From NCBI GenBank assembly GCA_964654075.1, contig CAZZIA010000001.1:1-34089 (forward strand): DNA of 34,089 bases, given 5' to 3'. Positions 3,812-26,706 of this stretch are shown piece after piece. The translations under genes were made by a program, and so were the position numbers. Source of the DNA: an uncultured archaeon (GTDB taxonomy: Archaea > Aenigmatarchaeota > Aenigmatarchaeia > Aenigmatarchaeales > Aenigmatarchaeaceae). The notes beneath the pieces were generated by a model that searched no databases, was not told the DNA's origin, and saw nothing but the letters and a program-made list of their open reading frames with translations. Position 1 is the stretch's first letter. Each line of letters opens with the position of its first letter.

Positions 3812-4252
3812 CTATAAATATTTACAGAAAATTATTGCATCCTTTCCTTTGTTGAACCAGTCCTTGACGCGTCCCAATTCCCTGTAGCCCATTGCTTTAT
3901 GCCATTGAATTGATGGCTTGTCTTTTGAATAGACGTCTGTCATAATCCTCTCAATGCCTCTTTTCTTTAACACTGTAGAACACTTGTTAAAAAGAAACGT
4001 GCCTAGACGTCGGCGCCTTAAATCAGTTTTTATAATTATTAACCAGCCCCATGCAGTACGACCCCAGGCATCGCAGGTAAATCTGGCGCCGATTATTTTT
4101 CCCTTATCCTCAAGAACCCAGCATGACTTTGGATTGAACTTGATTATCCACTTCAAGGTCTCTTTGTCAAACCAATTTTCTTTTTTGAAATCATCTTTTG
4201 ATAAATTATATACAATATCCATATCAGATAGTTTTGCGTATCTTATCCGCAT
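3812..4252 (-). CDS. GNAT family N-acetyltransferase (intact copy)
   Basis: The ORF track entry 3812..4288 reads through the tRNA-Ala 3' end. The true start is probably MRIRYAKL at 4252, preceded by a GTGAT SD 4 nt upstream. Acetyl-CoA motif A is present (RRRRLGTFLFNKCSTVLKKRG). Confidence 0.8.
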   Translation of the reverse strand: MRIRYAKLSDMDIVYNLSKDDFKKENWFDKETLKWIIKFNPKSCWVLEDKGKIIGARFTCDAWGRTAWGWLIIIKTDLRRRRLGTFLFNKCSTVLKKRGIERIMTDVYSKDKPSIQWHKAMGYRELGRVKDWFNKGKDAIIFCKYL

Positions 4253-4264
4253 GTCAATCACGAA

Positions 4265-4396
4265 TGGTGGACCCGCTGGGATTCTCAAAACCCTTTTGAT
4301 TAACTTTTTTCTAAAAGGTTATTTGAACCCAGGATCTCTTCCATGCCATTTCCGGATTTCTCCTAAGGAAGCGTCTTTCCGCTGGACCACGGGCCC
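4265..4396 (-). tRNA. tRNA-Ala(GGC), 2 introns (17 nt at 33/34, coordinates 4348-4364; 40 nt at 59/60, coordinates 4282-4321), CCA encoded
   Basis: Hand fold: GGGCCCG TG GTCC-AGCGGAA-AGAC G CTTCC TT|..|GGCAT GGAAG AGATC CTGGG TTCAAA|..|T CCCAG CGGGTCC A CCA. The G3:U70 Ala identity pair is present. The BHB central helices are TTCC/GGAA and TTCA/TGAG, each with 3-nt bulges. The spliced length is 75 nt. Confidence 0.85.
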
Positions 4397-6090
4397 TTAT
4401 AATTTTTATAAATTTTAAATAATTTATCCACTGTCCTTTTGTTTATTACCTTTATTTTATGACCACCGCTTCCATTAAAATGAGCACACCTATGACTTAA
4501 TACGGCGCCAGAAAATGTTTTTGGAATGTGACAATTATGAGTAAATATTCCAGAGCCGTGCATGAAATTTTTGTTTTTTTCTACCTCTATGTTATAGAAG
4601 TATTTTTTATGGTATTTCCCCCCTTTAACTCTCCTTATTCTAATGTATTTCAAATCTTTAAAGTTCTTTTCATGTTTCATTACCTTAATTTTTCTTATAT
4701 CTTTTTCCAAACCCCTATACTTAATAGCTAAATTACAATACTTCATAAATTTTGGTAAGAAAAATGTTTGTATGGCTATATCTTGCTCGTTTCTTCTTAA
4801 TCTGCCAACTATTTTTAATTTATTTAACAATAAAAGTATGCCGAAAATTAACTCTTTACTTTTAGAAAAGCCGGACAATACTATTGAGTTGGTTCTTTTA
4901 TTTATATTTATTTGGCCGTCTCCAGCAAACCAACCATCAATCAATCCTGCTATAAATTCATCAGGAGCATAAAAAACAAATGGTGGTATTTTTTTATATC
5001 GAGCCTTTTCGCCAAATCCTAATATATTGGATATTATATCTTGTAGAAATCTGCTATACACATATATAACTTTACAATTATTTTTAGTAGTTCTTTCCTT
5101 TGGATTTGCATTAAATCTCTTCTTTAGGACATATTTTATAAATTTATGATACTCTTTTTCATCTAGGTTAAAGCTAAATGAAACTGAACCTGCAGCATGA
5201 TCTATACTACCTTCACTCAAATAAAATCCGAAAAACCTTCCTAACTCATTATCCAGTATTAATTTTGATGGTATAACTGTAGATACGACGCCTTTCTTCA
5301 TTAACAGTCCATTTTCAATTTTTATTTCATCGAGTCTGTTTTTCTCTTTGAAAATGTTAAATAAGTTTATTTCTTTCACTTTTCTTTCAAGCTTCGGTAA
5401 AGAAAATAGTTCTGGTATTCTTATGTATAATTTTTCGTTTAAAATATCTTTAGCTGCACAATTTCTTAGTTTTACATAACCTTTAGGATGCTCATAAGAA
5501 TATCCGTGCTTTGTGAAAATAATGCCATGAGATGGGCTCGTTCTAATTATTCTACCATCTCTTGTAATTACCTTTATAATCTCTTTTTCTTTATTGTTTC
5601 TTCTCATTAATTTTTTAATACTTTTCATTTCAACTTTTCTTGTCTTAATGTCAATTGATATAACATTATATTTTTTTGAAGGATTTACCCATTCAATATT
5701 GTCTAATATATTTATTTTTTTAGCCAATTTAAACTCATTTTCTATGAGCTCGCCGATATCTTTGATTTTTAATCCCTCTCCATCCTCAATAACAATCTTC
5801 TCTTCATATGGAAGGCATAATTCATGTAACATCGTCTTCTGCTTCTCCTCTTCGCTCAATTCATCAAAGTTTTCGCTGACAGCCTCTATAACATAGTGGG
5901 CATCGACGCCCAAAGCCTTCTGCCATATTTTCGGCAACGACCATATCCGCGCATAAGCTCGGCTCGTGCTCTTGAAAGACCGCATGCACACCAGTCTGTC
6001 GACATCAATGTAATCTAGATTTAATTTTTTGACTATATCTTTGATAATTTCCTTTATGTCTGGCGCTGATTCGACTTTCATAAGAATCAT
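4363..6090 (-). CDS. predicted small Zn-metallopeptidase (HExxH, archaeal COG4900-like) interrupted by an intein
   Basis: The exteins (91 aa + 56 aa) read ...RAYARIWSLPKIWQKALGVDAHYVIEAVSENFDELSEEEKQKTMLHEL / CHIPKTFSGAVLSHR.... After splicing this gives HELCH. The last 34 nt of the ORF overlap the 5' part of tRNA-Ala on the same strand. Confidence 0.85.
   Translation of the reverse strand: MILMKVESAPDIKEIIKDIVKKLNLDYIDVDRLVCMRSFKSTSRAYARIWSLPKIWQKALGVDAHYVIEAVSENFDELSEEEKQKTMLHELCLPYEEKIVIEDGEGLKIKDIGELIENEFKLAKKINILDNIEWVNPSKKYNVISIDIKTRKVEMKSIKKLMRRNNKEKEIIKVITRDGRIIRTSPSHGIIFTKHGYSYEHPKGYVKLRNCAAKDILNEKLYIRIPELFSLPKLERKVKEINLFNIFKEKNRLDEIKIENGLLMKKGVVSTVIPSKLILDNELGRFFGFYLSEGSIDHAAGSVSFSFNLDEKEYHKFIKYVLKKRFNANPKERTTKNNCKVIYVYSRFLQDIISNILGFGEKARYKKIPPFVFYAPDEFIAGLIDGWFAGDGQININKRTNSIVLSGFSKSKELIFGILLLLNKLKIVGRLRRNEQDIAIQTFFLPKFMKYCNLAIKYRGLEKDIRKIKVMKHEKNFKDLKYIRIRRVKGGKYHKKYFYNIEVEKNKNFMHGSGIFTHNCHIPKTFSGAVLSHRCAHFNGSGGHKIKVINKRTVDKLFKIYKNYKGPWSSGKTLP
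4534..5817 (-). mobile_element. 428-aa class 1 intein with LAGLIDADG homing endonuclease domain
   Basis: N-terminal Cys (CLPYEEKIVIEDG, block A). Block B is GRIIRTSPSHGIIF. The LAGLIDADG motifs are LGRFFGFYLSEGSI and FIAGLIDGWFAGDGQI. Blocks F/G are YFYNIEVEKNKNFMHGSGIFTHN, followed by the +1 Cys. Codons at both junctions were checked by hand (TGC at 5817-5815; AAT TGT at 4536-4531). Confidence 0.85.
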
Positions 6091-6526
6091 AGTTGTTTTA
6101 GGAATATTATCGCATCTTTTCCTTTACCGAATCAATGTTTAACATGACCAACATCTTTGTAACCAACTTTCTTATGCCATTTAATTGATCCTTTATTTTT
6201 AGCATATGCATCGGTCAGTATTCTGCGATAACCCATTTTTTTCAATCTTTTGCAAGTTTCGTTGAAAAGAAATGTTCCAAACCCCTTCCCCGCATATCTT
6301 TTCTTATAACCAGCAACCAACTCCAGGCAGTCTCTCCCCAGCTCTCGAAAACAAATCTAGCCCCTATCAGCTTTCCTCTGTCCTCTAGTAACCACGTAAA
6401 TTCTGGATATTTCTCTATTAGATTTTTAATTAATTCCTTTTCAAACCAAAATTCTTCTTTAAAATCTTTAACACCAAGACTGTAAATATCGTTTATGTCA
6501 GATATTTTAGCATGCCGTATTTTCAT
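6087..6526 (-). pseudogene. GNAT N-acetyltransferase paralog, inactivated by a 1-nt deletion and a TGG->TGA change
   Basis: Track ORFs 6242..6553 and 6132..6320 are two frames of one gene roughly 50% identical to 3812..4252. The frame switches at ...RGRGL|GTFLF, where a G is missing in the run at ~6277-6278. The in-frame TGA at 6132-6134 aligns with Trp of the paralog (VKDWFNKGKDAIIF vs VKH*FGKGKDAIIF). The ancestral stop at 6087-6089 overlaps the ATG of the next gene. Confidence 0.8.
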
Positions 6527-6538
6527 AAAGATCACAAA

Positions 6539-6653
6539 TGGTGGGCCAGGCAAGATTTGAACTTGCGATATCTACCTTTCTTAGTGGTTTGTAAGGGTTG
6601 CACGTTTGCCATTAATGACAAACTTAGCGTCATAACCACTAGACCACTGGCCC
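6539..6653 (-). tRNA. tRNA-Val(UAC), 2 introns (27 nt at 29/30, coordinates 6598-6624; 12 nt at 37/38, coordinates 6578-6589), CCA encoded
   Basis: GGGCCAG TG GTCT-AGTGGTTA-TGAC G CTA|..|CC CTTACA|..|A GGTAG ATATC GCAAG TTCAAAT CTTGC CTGGCCC A CCA. The second intron has a perfect CTTA/TAAG central helix. The first has GTTTG/CAAAC plus a relaxed ACGC/GTGC helix. The spliced length is 76 nt. Confidence 0.8.
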
Positions 6654-7262: not shown

Positions 7263-7297
7263 TTTTGTAACTCAGAGTAGTGAATTATATTTAAATA

Positions 7298-7317
7298 TAA
7301 GTTATATGTATAACTTA
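7298..7317. promoter_or_regulatory. palindromic operator-like site overlapping the promoter of the 7320 gene
   Basis: TAAGTTATA-TG-TATAACTTA (9-bp arms) ends 2 nt before the ATG. An A/T-rich TATA-like stretch (ATTTAAATATA) lies just upstream. Confidence 0.35.
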
Positions 7318-7319
7318 GT

Positions 7320-7547
7320 ATGTTAAAAGAAAAATATCTATTTTTATCATTTGACATTCCTAGAGAAAAGGCTAGTTTCAGAGTCAAAATTTGGAGAAGG
7401 TTAAAGGAGATTGAAGCAAGGCAAAAACTTGGTTCTTATTGGATGCTTTCTTACTCAAAACAAAATCTAAACAATTTAAAAAAGATTGTTAAACAGATTA
7501 AAAAATCCAAAGGACGGGCTGAAATAATTGTTGGAAGATTGATTTAG
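7320..7547 (+). CDS. small ChrB-N-terminal/Cas2-like alpha/beta protein (hypothetical)
   Basis: 75 aa. YLFLSFDIPREKASFRVKIWRRLKEIEARQKLGSYWMLSY....GRAEIIVG follows the pattern of ChrB N-terminal-type domains (L-x-Y-x-hP-x-x-x-S-x-x-RV-x-hWR-x-L-x-x-x-GA-x-x-L-x-x-S-VW-x-LP ... G-G-x-A). Its stop overlaps the GTG start of the next gene (taGTG). Confidence 0.5.
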   Translation: MLKEKYLFLSFDIPREKASFRVKIWRRLKEIEARQKLGSYWMLSYSKQNLNNLKKIVKQIKKSKGRAEIIVGRLI

Positions 7548-8365
7548 TGAATAGTGCAAAATTTGATTTATCTAAAATTAAATTTAGTTGGACTGATAAA
7601 AGAAAGAAAATAAAATTGCCGGAAATGTTAACAGAAGAATTGGCAGAAGATATTGGAATTCATATTGGAGATGGGAGTATGTATCTAACAGGTCCAAACT
7701 TAAAAAGCTATGAAATGAGATATTCGGGTGATTCCACAGAAGATAAAGAACATTATATTAATCGAATAATACCATTAAAAGAAAGATTATTTAATAAACA
7801 AATAAATGGAAAGATATTAAATTTTAGAGGAAATGAATATGGATTTGTCATTTGCTCAAAAGCAATTTTTTATTTTTATACAAAAATTATACATATCCCT
7901 TCAGGCACCAAAACAAAAATAGCAGAAGTACCTAAAATGATAATGAAATCTAACAAATCTATTCAAGCTGCATTTATAAGAGGATTGTCTGATACAGACT
8001 TTTCATTAACGTTTAAAAGAAAAAGCACTAAACATAATTTAAATTATTATCCTATGATTACAGCAAATTTTGCAAGTAGAAAATTAGTTGATAATCTTCA
8101 AAAAATTTTAAAGGGTTTAAGTTTTAATGTTGTAATTCTAGATGGAATTAATAAGAGGTATAACAAACATTATCCAACTCATATAATTAACATAAATGGA
8201 AAAAGGAACTTAGAACTTTGGATGAAAATTATAGGTTTTAATAATCCAAAACACTTAACAAAATATTTGGTGTGGAAAAAATTTGGTTTTTGCCCACCAA
8301 GATTATCTCTGAAACAAAGAAAACAAATACTAACAGGAAATTTGGATCCATATAATTTTTATTAA
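7547..8365 (+). CDS. free-standing double-motif LAGLIDADG homing endonuclease-like protein (copy 1)
   Basis: 272 aa. Motif 1 is LAEDIGIHIGDGSMY and motif 2 is AFIRGLSDTDFSL, both retaining the acidic residue. It is a paralog of the 24.0-24.8 kb ORF. The stop lies 1 nt from the 3' end of the convergent tRNA-Ile. Confidence 0.8.
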   Translation: MNSAKFDLSKIKFSWTDKRKKIKLPEMLTEELAEDIGIHIGDGSMYLTGPNLKSYEMRYSGDSTEDKEHYINRIIPLKERLFNKQINGKILNFRGNEYGFVICSKAIFYFYTKIIHIPSGTKTKIAEVPKMIMKSNKSIQAAFIRGLSDTDFSLTFKRKSTKHNLNYYPMITANFASRKLVDNLQKILKGLSFNVVILDGINKRYNKHYPTHIININGKRNLELWMKIIGFNNPKHLTKYLVWKKFGFCPPRLSLKQRKQILTGNLDPYNFY

Positions 8366-8366
8366 A

Positions 8367-8516
8367 TGGTGGGCGAGGTGAGATTTGAACTCACGACATC
8401 TGGGAGTTTTAACTCTCACCAGTTTTTACGCCAGGTTGCCTTATAAGACTGGCGCTCCTTCAGGAACGTATTAACCTGGCTGAGCATCGGGAACACAAAC
8501 ATGTGTTTACCCGCCC
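8367..8516 (-). tRNA. tRNA-Ile(UAU), 4 introns (22 nt at 9/10, coordinates 8486-8507; 14 nt in the D-loop, 8459-8472; 17 nt at 38/39, 8424-8440; 19 nt at 45/46, 8398-8416), CCA encoded
   Basis: Exons: GGGCGGGTA | GCTCAGCCAGGTT | GGAGCGCCAGTCTTATAA | ACTGGTG | GTCGTGAGTTCAAATCTCACCTCGCCCACCA. These give a 78-nt class I cloverleaf with loop CTTATAA and variable loop TGGTC. Each intron has a 4-bp central helix flanked by 3-nt bulges: CGGG/CCCG, CAGG/CCTG, TTAT/GTAA and CTGG/CCAG. Confidence 0.75.
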
Positions 8517-8641
8517 ATCTTTATCCTCACCCAATAAGAATTTATTACTATGAATCAATTTAAAAATATGCATAAAGAACGGTTAATAAATTAGTTAGGA
8601 TATTTATACTTATTGAAATAATAAAATAATGAGGTGTTTTG

Positions 8642-9013
8642 ATGAAGCAGTTTGACGTATATGTTACAAAAAAAGTTGGTGCTCTAGCTGATGTTTGCGA
8701 GCTATTGGCAAAGTCTGCTATAAATATTAGAGCTATCTCAACTGACGGAAATACTATAAGACTTGTAACAGAAGATGAAAGAACAACAATGGATGCGCTG
8801 AAAAAAGCTAGACTAAATTTTACTGATTCTGATATTTTATCTGTAAGATTGATTGATAGGCCTGGGGAGCTTGCAAAAGTTGCCAGAGCTCTAGCAAGAG
8901 AAGGAATAGCAATAGAATCTGTGTATATATTAGATAGAGACAAAGAAAGAGGGGAAACAGAAATTGCACTAAAAGTTGACAATTTGGCAAAGGCAAAGAA
9001 AATACTCAAATAG
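8642..9013 (+). CDS. ACT-domain protein (tandem paralog 1)
   Basis: The ORF is about 123 aa from ATG 8642, with a GAGGTG SD upstream (the track starts at TTG 8639). Two ACT-like repeats are present: KKVGALADVCELLAKSAINIRAIS and DRPGELAKVARALAREGIAIESVY. Confidence 0.75.
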   Translation: MKQFDVYVTKKVGALADVCELLAKSAINIRAISTDGNTIRLVTEDERTTMDALKKARLNFTDSDILSVRLIDRPGELAKVARALAREGIAIESVYILDRDKERGETEIALKVDNLAKAKKILK

Positions 9014-9513: not shown

Positions 9514-11163
9514 ATGAATGGTCAGACAGCACAATTTGGCGGGCAACCTATACTGGTTTTGCCCGAAGGTACTTTAAGGACAATTGGAAAGGATGCGCAA
9601 CATAATAACATAGCTGCAGCAAAGGCTGTAGCTGATGCTGTACGAACAACTCTAGGTCCTAAAGGTATGGATAAAATGCTTGTTGATTCATTAGGTGATA
9701 TTGTAATAACAAATGATGGTGTTACAATTCTAGAGGAAATGCGTATTGAACATCCTGCCGCAAAAATGATAGTTGAAGTAGCAAAAACACAAGATGAAGA
9801 GGTTGGTGATGGCACAACAACTGCAGCAGTCCTTGCAGGCGAGCTTCTGAAAAAAGCTGAAGAGCTTCTTGATCAAAGTATACATCCAACTGTCATAACA
9901 AGAGGATTTAGACTTGCAAGGGAAAGGGCTTTAGAAATTTTAGCTAAAATGGCAAAGGATGTAAAACCTGATGATATAGAAACACTAAGAAAAATTGCAA
10001 TAACGGCAATGACAGGTAAATCTGCTGAAAGAGCATCTGAACATCTTTCTAATTTGACAGTAGACGCTGTAAAGCTTGTAACTGAAAAAGTAAATGGAAA
10101 GCTGGAAATTAATACTGATAACATAAAGCTTGAGAAAAAGCCGGGCGCTTCCTCAGAAGATACTGAGCTGATAAAGGGAATAATAATTGACAAAGAAGTT
10201 GTTCATCCAGCAATGCCTAAGCATGTAAAAAATGCAAAAGTTGCTATTCTTGACTGTGCACTTGAAATAGAAAAACCTGAAACTGATGCACAAATTAGGA
10301 TTACAAATCCTGAACAGCTACAATTGTTCTTAGATCAGGAGGATAAAATACTTAAACAAATGGCTGAGAAGGTTGCTAATTCTGGTTGCAATGTGCTATT
10401 TTGTCAAAAAGGAATAGATGATATAGCACAACATCATTTGGCAAAAAGGGGAATTTTAGCTGCAAGGAGAGTTAAAAAATCTGACGTTGAAAAGCTTGCA
10501 AGAGCAACTGGAGCAAAAATAATAACAAGCTTAGAAGATCTAACAAAGCAGGATCTTGGATTTGCAGGACTTGTTGAAGAAAAGAAAATTGCCGGAGAGC
10601 AAATGACATTTGTAAGGGAGTGCAAAGATCCAAAGGCGGTTTCAATCCTAATTAGGGGTGGTACAGAGCACGTTGTTGAAGAGGTTGAGCGGGCAATGGA
10701 AGATGCTATAGGTGGTGTTGCATCCGCAATAGAGATTGGCAAGGTTGTAGCTGGTGGAGGTGCACCTGAAGCCAAAGTTGCAAAGGGTCTTAGAGAATTT
10801 GCCCAATCTTTTTCTGGAAGAGAACAGCTAGCAATACTTGCATTTGCAGAAGCGATGGAAGTAATTCCAAGAACACTTGCTGAAAATGCTGGGCTTGACC
10901 CAATAGATATACTTGTTGAGCTAAGAGCAGCTCAAGATGAAGGAAAAGTAAACTCTGGTGTGGAAGTTTTTAAAGGCAAAATTTCCGATATGTGGGAAGT
11001 TGGTGTAATTGAGCCATTGAAAATCAAAACACAGGCCATAAAATCAGCTGCAGAGGCAGCAGAGCTGATATTAAGAATAGATGATATAATATCTGCTGGA
11101 AGACTTGAAAAGGGTCCACAAATGCCGCCTGGCGGGATGCCTGGAGCAGAGGGAGAGTATTAA
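9514..11163 (+). CDS. ths: thermosome subunit (group II chaperonin)
   Basis: 549 aa. Motifs [45 protein letters not shown] and a C-terminal GGMPG tail. Confidence 0.95.
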
Positions 11164-26151: not shown

Positions 26152-26706
26152 ATGTTCGTTCGTATTGTCCCGGCAGGAAATATAGCTCCAAAAATTCTAG
26201 AGTTGGTATGTGCTGGACTTGAAGAAGTGCTAAACTCGAGATGTAGAATACTTCAAAAAGTACAAATACCAAAAGAAGCGTGGGATCACTGGAGAAGGCA
26301 ATATGATGCTGAAAAAATACTAGAGAGCCTCGTAGACACTGGTGCTGCAAAGTTCATAGACAAATCAATACCAACAATAGGCATAACAGATGAAGATATA
26401 TATTATAAGGGATTAAACTTTGTATTTGGGCTTGAAGAACCAGCTACAGGTTGTTGCATAGTATCGATTGCTAGACTAAAGCAGGAATTTTATGGCCAAA
26501 GTTCAAATATGGGGCTTTTAGTTGATAGGACTGTTAAAGAAGTTATACATCAAATTGGCCACCTTTTTGACTTAAGTCACTGCCAATACCCAACATGTGT
26601 GATGTGCTTTTCACCATCAGTAAACGACGTTGACAATAAGCAAAAGTATTTTTGTGACAACTGTAAAATTAAAATAGCGAGAAAAGGTATCAGGATGTCT
26701 GATTAA
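26152..26706 (+). CDS. amzA: archaemetzincin (peptidase M54)
   Basis: 184 aa. HQIGHLFDLSHC (HExxHxxGxxH-type with Q in place of E, plus Cys), followed by C..CVMCF and CDNC zinc-binding cysteines. Confidence 0.85.
   Translation: MFVRIVPAGNIAPKILELVCAGLEEVLNSRCRILQKVQIPKEAWDHWRRQYDAEKILESLVDTGAAKFIDKSIPTIGITDEDIYYKGLNFVFGLEEPATGCCIVSIARLKQEFYGQSSNMGLLVDRTVKEVIHQIGHLFDLSHCQYPTCVMCFSPSVNDVDNKQKYFCDNCKIKIARKGIRMSD

Follow-up and report, generated by a model that had tools for sequence, protein, structure and literature searches.

The subject of this paper is an intein that interrupts the zinc-binding motif of a small metallopeptidase. It is encoded in a 34,089-nt stretch of DNA from an uncultured archaeon of the Aenigmatarchaeota (contig CAZZIA010000001.1, positions 1 to 34,089), referred to here as the window. 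The insert lies between Leu91 and the second variable residue (x2) of the HExxH motif of a zincin-like peptidase of about 144 amino acids, a member of the Pfam family PF18894. It unites a splicing domain of the class-1 type with a LAGLIDADG homing endonuclease. We propose that it is a bona fide class-1 intein, which would restore the peptidase by protein splicing and which would have reached its present site by homing, accompanied by co-conversion of the adjacent host sequence. The probability of this reading, with splicing, homing and co-conversion history all included, is in our judgement roughly 85%.

The longest open reading frame (ORF) over the interval of interest is located on the minus strand and corresponds to the whole precursor (Table 1). 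Its re-translation reproduced exactly the boundaries and junction residues of the original prediction, an earlier reading of this DNA that had placed an intein running from CLPYEE to GIFTHN at 4534-5817, behind KTMLHEL and ahead of CHIPKTFSGAV. The same prediction had put the intein inside HExxH, which is also what we find. The codons for HEL at the end of the N-extein occupy 5818..5826 (minus strand), the insertion falls between x1 and x2, the +1 Cys is itself x2, and the joined exteins read HELCH across the splice junction. The host had been given as 147 amino acids long, a figure that holds for the reading frame as read but probably not for the protein. Because all homologues begin with MK.E, and an identical protein in the public collection (P0121, recorded from a 52.6-kb NCBI contig) has 572 amino acids, the true start is probably M4 at window position 6081, giving a host of about 144 residues. 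The intein had been described as nearly three times as long as its host, and at 428 against about 144 residues it indeed has about three times the host's length. At the opposite end of the gene, TGG stands in the window where the close relative L004 has TAG, the ancestral stop. Translation consequently continues through nine further residues, PWSSGKTLP (4363..4392, minus strand), which form the sole disordered part of the model of the spliced exteins.

Table 1. Positions in the window of the intein-containing precursor, its parts and the putative foreign tract
Feature	Position	Strand	Description
Precursor	4363..6090	-	PF18894 metallopeptidase interrupted by intein; 575 aa from first ATG
N-extein	5818..6090	-	91 aa, ends ..KTMLHEL (active-site helix); predicted zinc ligand H89 and catalytic E90
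Intein	4534..5817	-	Residues 92-519 of precursor, 428 aa, CLPYEE...GIFTHN; class-1 HINT domain with double LAGLIDADG
C-extein	4366..4533 (stop codon 4363..4365)	-	56 aa, CHIPKTFSGAVLSH..., starts CHIPKTFSGAV
Splicing block A	5779..5817	-	CLPYEEKIVIEDG; Cys1, predicted first nucleophile
Splicing block B	5527..5541	-	TSPSH, [S/T]xxH motif with S185 and H188 (precursor numbering)
Splicing blocks F and G	4534..4602	-	YFYNIEVEKNKNFMHGSGIFTHN; penultimate His518 and terminal Asn519
First LAGLIDADG motif	5206..5244	-	LGRFFGFYLSEGS, predicted catalytic E293, ..YLSEGS; aligned to PI-PkoII motif LAKLLGYYVSEG
Second LAGLIDADG motif	4912..4956	-	FIAGLIDGWFAGDGQ, predicted catalytic D391, ..FAGDGQ; aligned to PI-PkoII LEGYFIGDGD
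Putative foreign tract	4517..6566 (approximate)	-	Frameshifted GNAT remnant, N-extein, intein and ~16 nt of C-extein; from blastn against L004 and informative sites

The identity of the insert is supported by profile matches, by its residues and by what its removal does to the host, and chance can be dismissed as an explanation. Its scores exceed the cut-offs of four curated models: 63.2 bits against Intein_splicing (PF14890; cut-off 35.8, E 3.2e-17), 44.2 bits against the intein N-terminal region (TIGR01445; cut-off 24.5), 20.6 bits against the intein C-terminal region (TIGR01443; cut-off 15.6) and, in two stretches, 44.5 bits against LAGLIDADG_3 (PF14528; cut-off 22.5, E 1.9e-11). The whole-protein NCBIfam models that it matches best describe intein-containing RNA polymerase A'', Tes, PolD and DnaB, with the match falling in their intein portions. 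The residues characteristic of class-1 inteins, C92, S185-P-S-H188, H518-N519 and C520, are all present and are kept in the seven intein-bearing sequences described below; across these seven, C92, L93, P94 and H188 are invariant and position 185 is either Ser or Thr. Once the intein is removed, an ungapped alignment with 119 intein-free homologues is restored over HEL-x-HIPKTFSG. The canonical HN|C junction excludes a bacterial intein-like (BIL)/Hint domain. The reading frame, which is continuous and in frame, likewise leaves no room for a group I intron or for a homing endonuclease gene standing on its own.

According to the established chemistry of inteins, Cys1 would undergo an N-S acyl shift after translation, Cys+1 would attack the resulting thioester (trans-thioesterification), cyclisation of Asn519 would free the intein and an S-N shift would ligate the exteins into ...HELCH.... 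Splicing would bring H89, H93 and probably H105, together with the catalytic E90, onto one chain in the right geometry. As H89 and E90 are separated from H93 and H105 by 428 residues in the unspliced precursor, the latter should be inactive as a peptidase.

The original prediction regarded the exteins as an HExxH metallopeptidase and proposed that profiles be searched with the joined exteins as well as with the intein. The joined exteins (147 aa) match PF18894, "putative phage metallopeptidase", with 80.8 bits over residues 5-106 (cut-off 23.7, E 1.3e-22), and sub-threshold echoes of SprT-like, M78 and WLM models appear around HExxH. A search of 5.8 billion proteins with the spliced extein gave 352 relatives. 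The best 120 of these 352 are all intein-free and 123-169 amino acids long, and those among them that bear a name are called "metallopeptidase" and come from metagenome-assembled genomes of DPANN archaea (Nanoarchaeota, Aenigmatarchaeota, Micrarchaeota and Nanohalarchaeota). The best match, P0001, is 85% identical to the spliced extein. The survey of intein-free homologues suggested with the prediction is provided by an alignment of 120 rows, composed of the spliced window sequence and 119 homologues that pass through the junction without a gap. Eight positions are invariant in all rows: H89, E90, H93, P95, F98, S99, G100 and H105 (spliced numbering). H93 is probably the second zinc ligand and H105 the third.

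The residue at x2 behaves differently. In the 120 rows it is Leu 58 times, Met 37, Ile 16, Ala 5, Cys 3 and Ser once, so that about 93% of the sequences have Leu, Met or Ile, and the window has Cys. Since every intein-bearing allele has Cys at this normally hydrophobic position, the +1 nucleophile appears to be a substitution imposed by the intein. HELCH also occurs in two homologues without an intein, P0010 and one other. Such alleles may have arisen by precise loss of an intein, or they may have been suited to invasion beforehand.

The AlphaFold model of the spliced extein has a predicted local distance difference test score (pLDDT) of 90.6. Its top matches in the PDB are all zincins, namely selecase, jannalysin, BlaR1, SPRTN, Ste24 and HtpX. 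The matches are weak (E 0.05-1, template modelling (TM) scores 0.3-0.57), and a zincin fold of the host is consistent with them rather than proven. Profile searches of the extein against NCBIfam and PHROGs gave no meaningful match, which suggests that this branch of the family is cellular and archaeal despite the "phage" in the Pfam name. No literature on the biochemistry of PF18894 was found. The family is presumably equivalent to COG4900, the "predicted metallopeptidase" of archaea. In one paper COG4900 is listed as a Crenarchaeota-specific COG, given for Aeropyrum APE1561. Tandem duplications of PF18894, with lengths of 219-265 amino acids, occur in P0140, P0141, P0153, P0250 and P0257. In several such proteins one copy has lost HExxH (for example LINLLLYIPKRF, LIQELLYIPKSF, VIRWLLLIPKSF) and the other copy keeps it, which suggests an arrangement of enzyme and pseudo-enzyme in part of the family.

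The second component of the insert, its endonuclease, had been called an apparently intact double LAGLIDADG domain, and this description is borne out by several lines of evidence. Each of the two motifs ends in an acidic residue followed by Gly (E293 and D391), and DGWFAGDG is invariant in the seven intein-bearing sequences. In the AlphaFold model of the precursor, built from the alignment of these seven, the endonuclease is predicted with confidence (pLDDT 81-95 over residues 241-390) and takes the pseudo-dimeric alpha-beta-beta-alpha-beta-beta-alpha fold. Foldseek matches it to the inteins TliVMA, PI-PkoII, PhoVMA, PI-PfuI and PI-SceI (E 5e-18 to 1e-9) and to the monomeric endonucleases I-Tsp061I and I-DmoI (target-normalised TM score 0.62-0.66, probability 1.0).

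Selection on the endonuclease can be judged from the proportion of nonsynonymous differences (pN). Synonymous sites are saturated in every allele pair (proportion of synonymous differences, pS, about 0.7-0.9), and therefore only comparisons of pN were used. It is lowest in the endonuclease (0.08-0.23), intermediate in the HINT domain (0.17-0.30) and highest in the extein (0.29-0.40). By this measure no other part of the precursor is as conserved as the endonuclease, which is therefore under strong constraint. The excised intein would cut intein-free alleles at the conserved sequence coding for HEL|xH-IPKTFSG. Repair from an intein-bearing allele would then copy the intein in and would have to turn the +1 codon, which specifies Leu, Met or Ile, into a Cys codon by co-conversion.

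Intein-bearing alleles are not confined to the window. A search with the whole precursor revealed seven 90%-identity clusters that combine PF18894 with the intein: P0121, identical to the window protein, and P0122-P0127. The latter are 48-54% identical, and in all seven a homologous intein occupies the same HEL|CH site. One of P0122-P0127, MFQ5647831.1, is annotated as [quoted passage not shown]. An exhaustive HMMER search of 1.84 billion 50%-identity representatives yielded P0126 as the single full-length copy, together with the junction fragments P0187 and P0205, which raise the number of intein-bearing alleles by two. The nearest non-allelic inteins in that set are about 31% identical, in the endonuclease only, and reside in very large proteins. 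Metagenomes of the Joint Genome Institute contain five full-length and two partial copies. Two intein-specific peptide patterns gave 73 pattern matches among 185,579 GTDB species representatives, none of which was a confirmed relative. The allele thus recurs but is rare.

The relationships among these alleles differ between intein and host. The intein-bearing exteins belong to at least three subtypes (..FSGAVLSH.., ..FGGGFRHH.. and ..FSGALRPH..). Of the 21 pairs that the seven sequences form, 19 show a higher identity in the intein than in the extein; the values are 76% versus 52% for P0124 and P0125, and 60% versus 42% for P0126 and P0127. Nearest neighbours disagree as well, as the window extein is closest to P0126 and the window intein to P0122. 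The contig that carries P0127 (L001) encodes at 10033..11124 an intein-containing IF-2-family GTPase of 1102 amino acids, with GTP_EFTU, IF-2, Intein_splicing and LAGLIDADG_3 matches; with the two inteins on one contig, at least one genome of this kind hosts several inteins.

A related locus with an empty site is found in L004, a contig from sample SRR22388313. It is colinear with the window over the SpoIIM gene, the peptidase gene, the MPG gene, the ACT genes and the thermosome gene, with proteins 84-97% identical (thermosome 96.9%, SpoIIM 94.9%) and DNA 86-92% identical. Its peptidase has 136 amino acids and is without an intein, the empty site being ..TTACATGAATTG|TTACATGTGCCACAT... A second empty site, in the higher-GC allele L005, reads ..CTTCATGAGTTG|ATGCATATTCCGAAG... 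Together the two intein-free sites can be written as CATGA(A/G)TTG|(T/A)T(A/G)CAT.

Comparison of the three alleles shows the host gene of the window to be a mosaic. The DNA of its N-extein is only 70% identical to L004 and 79.5% identical to L005, and its GC content at third codon positions (GC3) is 0.53, compared with 0.26 ± 0.05 for the window genes. The C-extein matches L004 at 88% identity from nucleotide 17 to its end, and the GC3 of the whole C-extein is 0.32. The first ~16 nt of the C-extein, coding for Cys-His-Ile-Pro-Lys, are donor-like. Informative sites are divided 53:28 (L005-like to L004-like) in the N-extein and 2:30 in the C-extein from nucleotide 17 (Fisher p 3e-9). The 3' breakpoint can be placed roughly 16-23 nt past the start of the C-extein, near window 4511-4518. 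The 5' edge of the foreign-looking tract is just as approximate. Repair of a double-strand break during homing predicts a breakpoint close to the insertion, here no more than about 20 nt away, together with a converted +1 codon. An N-extein and first ~16 nt of the C-extein that look foreign, and a remainder of the C-extein that looks native, fit homing with co-conversion. The intein would have reached this lineage by gene conversion from a higher-GC relative, and the same event would have brought the whole N-extein, the upstream GNAT remnant and the ~16 nt of the C-extein. L005 was considered as the donor and rejected: the gene upstream of its peptidase is something other than a GNAT, and it agrees with the window at only 53 of the 94 informative sites in the N-extein. 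It may be a relative of the donor lineage at best. The base composition of the intein was likewise rejected as a sign of foreign origin, because its GC3 of 0.24 matches the window genome and it is the extein that is the compositional outlier.

That the intein may still be mobile, as had originally been suggested, receives indirect support from the constraint on the endonuclease, from the disagreement between intein and extein similarities and from the mosaic gene beside an empty-site relative. These same facts bear on a different view, in which a genuine intein has been reduced to splicing alone. Its endonuclease would no longer home, and the element would persist vertically, since deletions are seldom precise and any imprecise one would abolish HExxH. 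The closest sampled intein is only 57% identical to that of the window, so no very recent transfer partner has been sampled. In P0122 a Lys replaces the first catalytic Glu (YLSKGS), a sign that endonuclease decay does occur in this lineage, and the lack of the allele among the GTDB species representatives indicates that it is not sweeping. Nevertheless, we consider this view unlikely. Both catalytic acidic residues are intact in the window intein, and the lowest pN of the precursor (with pS saturated) would be unexpected in a dead domain. The intein and extein similarities disagree, and the breakpoint of the mosaic lies directly beside the insertion site.

The mosaic itself could have other origins, either as an assembly chimera of co-occurring strains or as the trace of a larger, unrelated horizontal replacement of a GNAT-peptidase segment that already contained the intein. 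The window is evidently a metagenome-assembled contig, and its foreign-looking tract reaches past the gene by ~0.5 kb, into a GNAT remnant that L004 lacks. A second GNAT gene of atypical GC3 (3812-4288, GC3 0.43) follows beyond the native C-extein, which points to more than one rearrangement in this place. Against this, one breakpoint within ~20 nt of the insertion site is predicted by homing repair and not by an unrelated event. On either side the contig stays colinear with L004 for more than 5 kb, so that a chimera would need two mis-joins, and the identical protein P0121 was recorded from the 52.6-kb NCBI contig. We give these origins a low likelihood.

It is very improbable that the intein is splicing-defective and the peptidase gene effectively a pseudogene or a source of cleavage products only: the Asn of block F in place of the common Asp, the lost ancestral stop and the adjoining frameshifted GNAT gene hint at local decay, but the 575-codon reading frame is intact in a genome of 34% GC, where chance stop codons arise easily, Cys1, the block-B His, the terminal HN and Cys+1 are invariant in seven sequences 48-54% identical overall, both exteins retain every family-invariant residue and pN is far below pS in all regions.

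For the proposed class-1 intein with a history of homing and co-conversion, several points have to be set on the other side of the balance. Splicing, DNA cleavage and peptidase activity are all deduced from sequence. Block F has Asn in place of the Asp of many inteins, though all seven sequences share this Asn. Outside the endonuclease the precursor model is poor (mean pLDDT of the whole 59.7), the ratio dN/dS can be given as bounds only owing to the saturated synonymous sites, and the fold assignment of the host is statistically weak (E >= 0.05), with no solved relative of the extein found by sequence search of the PDB. The homing history is drawn from two comparison alleles, three alleles being compared in all, and 28 of the 94 informative N-extein sites side with L004, so that L005 is not the donor. 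The intein is equally AT-rich (GC3 0.24-0.30) in all three hosts examined, including the higher-GC ones, and its composition therefore says nothing about its origin. Finally, a doubly chimeric metagenome assembly is an alternative to the mosaic that only the sequencing reads could exclude.

Mechanistically, the element appears to be a standard class-1 LAGLIDADG intein. Like PI-PkoII, the DNA polymerase intein of Thermococcus kodakarensis (2cw7), TliVMA and PhoVMA (7qss, 7qst) and PI-PfuI (1dq3), it has a HINT domain split by a double-LAGLIDADG endonuclease. With archaeal class-1 inteins it shares Cys1, a block-B His of the TxxH type, the terminal His-Asn, a +1 nucleophile and a position in a catalytic motif of the host. 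It matches PI-PkoII in sequence (E 1.2e-9), and Foldseek comparisons with archaeal endonuclease-bearing inteins give E 5e-18 to 9e-13 at probability 1.0. Unlike these similarities of architecture, its sequence is distant from all solved inteins, with only 12-17% identity to any of them.

Host and insertion site are new, in that no description of either was found. In contrast to polymerases, ATPases or reductases, the present host is a zinc peptidase of about 144 amino acids. Inteins do occur in other proteases, namely archaeal LonB (COG1067) and, as cited, chloroplast ClpP (Novikova et al. 2016, PMC4760082), and there too the interrupted protease is presumably inactive until splicing. Those hosts are, however, serine or ATP-dependent enzymes, and LonB is a P-loop NTPase; the host described here is a metal-dependent HExxH enzyme whose metal-binding motif itself is split. 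The main text of the same paper has no metallopeptidase among its intein hosts. The original prediction had noted that a peptidase of this kind is not among the known hosts of inteins. This is consistent with our literature search, which covered inteins in an HExxH motif, in metallopeptidases, in DPANN archaea, in COG4900 or in PF18894, found no description and did not extend to InBase. As for the host itself, it resembles the minigluzincins selecase and jannalysin of Methanocaldococcus jannaschii (4qhf, 4jix), single-domain proteins of ~140 amino acids that are its best fold matches, and, when spliced, it keeps the HExxH-P..FSG....H pattern of PF18894 members. Its fold similarity to these two and to other solved zincins is nevertheless weak.

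The proposed history has its closest parallel in haloarchaeal MCM and PolB inteins, where homing is accompanied by co-conversion of the extein and, in MCM, the +1 Pro is changed to Ser (PMC10643990). The cases have in common an empty-site close relative, a donor-type flank and a +1 residue that must be co-converted, here from Leu, Met or Ile to Cys. They differ in that the 5' tract of the window would cover the whole short N-extein and a neighbouring gene and the 3' tract ~16 nt, as judged from three sequences.

The position of the intein raises a further idea, which we regard as highly doubtful. Four residues around the junctions, His-3 (H89), Cys1, Cys+1 and His+2 (H93), might form a Cys2His2-like zinc site in the folded precursor, and zinc, the presumed cofactor of the mature enzyme, might reversibly block splicing, making the precursor a zymogen gated by metal or redox state. 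Inhibition by zinc through the catalytic Cys is established in other inteins (PMC7360933); in the present case the extein itself would supply extra ligands. The junctions belong to the parts of the precursor model with pLDDT below 50 (residues 89-98 and 505-554). If the idea were true, the intein would control when a potentially dangerous small peptidase becomes active.

The window is a fragment of an archaeal chromosome with 34.4% GC. Its genes include those for a Pelota/aRF1-like protein, the thermosome, the MPG glycosylase, a type-IV pilus ATPase and platform proteins, NMD3, aIF1A, topoisomerase VI A and B, the tRNA-intron endonuclease, archaemetzincin and three aminoacyl-tRNA synthetases. 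No other inteins are present within its 34,089 nt. The best matches of the thermosome among GTDB species representatives are metagenome-assembled genomes of Aenigmatarchaeota, at only 76%, which makes a DPANN archaeon of this phylum the most likely source, one that lacks a near representative. No conserved gene neighbourhood hints at the function of the peptidase, and its neighbours differ among L001, L002, L004, L097 and the window.

In the window, the peptidase gene is flanked by two paralogous GNAT genes in the same orientation, at 6132..6553 and 3812..4288 (both minus strand). The upstream copy is probably a pseudogene disrupted by a frameshift, since it falls into two ORFs that overlap (6242-6553 and 6132-6320). 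The downstream copy is intact, and its GC3 given above compares with a window mean of 0.26. Both GNAT genes are window-specific, L004 having a bPH_2-domain gene upstream instead, and no DNA similarity between the two copies could be detected. Farther upstream, the window has a segment of ~1.1 kb (7272..8367) in place of ~96 bp in L004, possibly a strain-specific insertion. It contains an ORF of 272 amino acids at 7547..8365 (plus strand) with a GTG start, GC 25.6%, GC3 0.16 and no Pfam match. An ORF of 124 amino acids at 8639..9013 (plus strand) corresponds by position to the second ACT-domain gene of L004 (2920-3291); it is overlapped by one of 149 amino acids at 8560..9009 (minus strand), which has no Pfam match and is probably spurious. 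The archaemetzincin (Peptidase_M54, E 4e-31; 26152..26706, plus strand) is the second small zinc peptidase of the window and is without an intein.

The catalogue of inteins is dominated by hosts that act in replication, recombination and repair or bind ATP. The present element would add to it a new class of host, a small zinc metallopeptidase, and a new site, the inside of HExxH. DPANN archaea have barely been surveyed for inteins, with two genomes and one intein in one recent survey. The public records of these proteins speak of a "putative metallopeptidase" only and leave the intein unmentioned, which is a gap in annotation. With an intein-bearing allele, a closely related empty site and a breakpoint about 16-23 nt away from the insertion, the window and its relative would preserve natural traces of homing with co-conversion of a kind rarely available from uncultivated archaea. 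Because the host is tiny and its activity is predicted to need residues of both exteins within four positions of the junction, it may serve as a natural test case for splicing-dependent activation and, possibly, for metal-dependent splicing.

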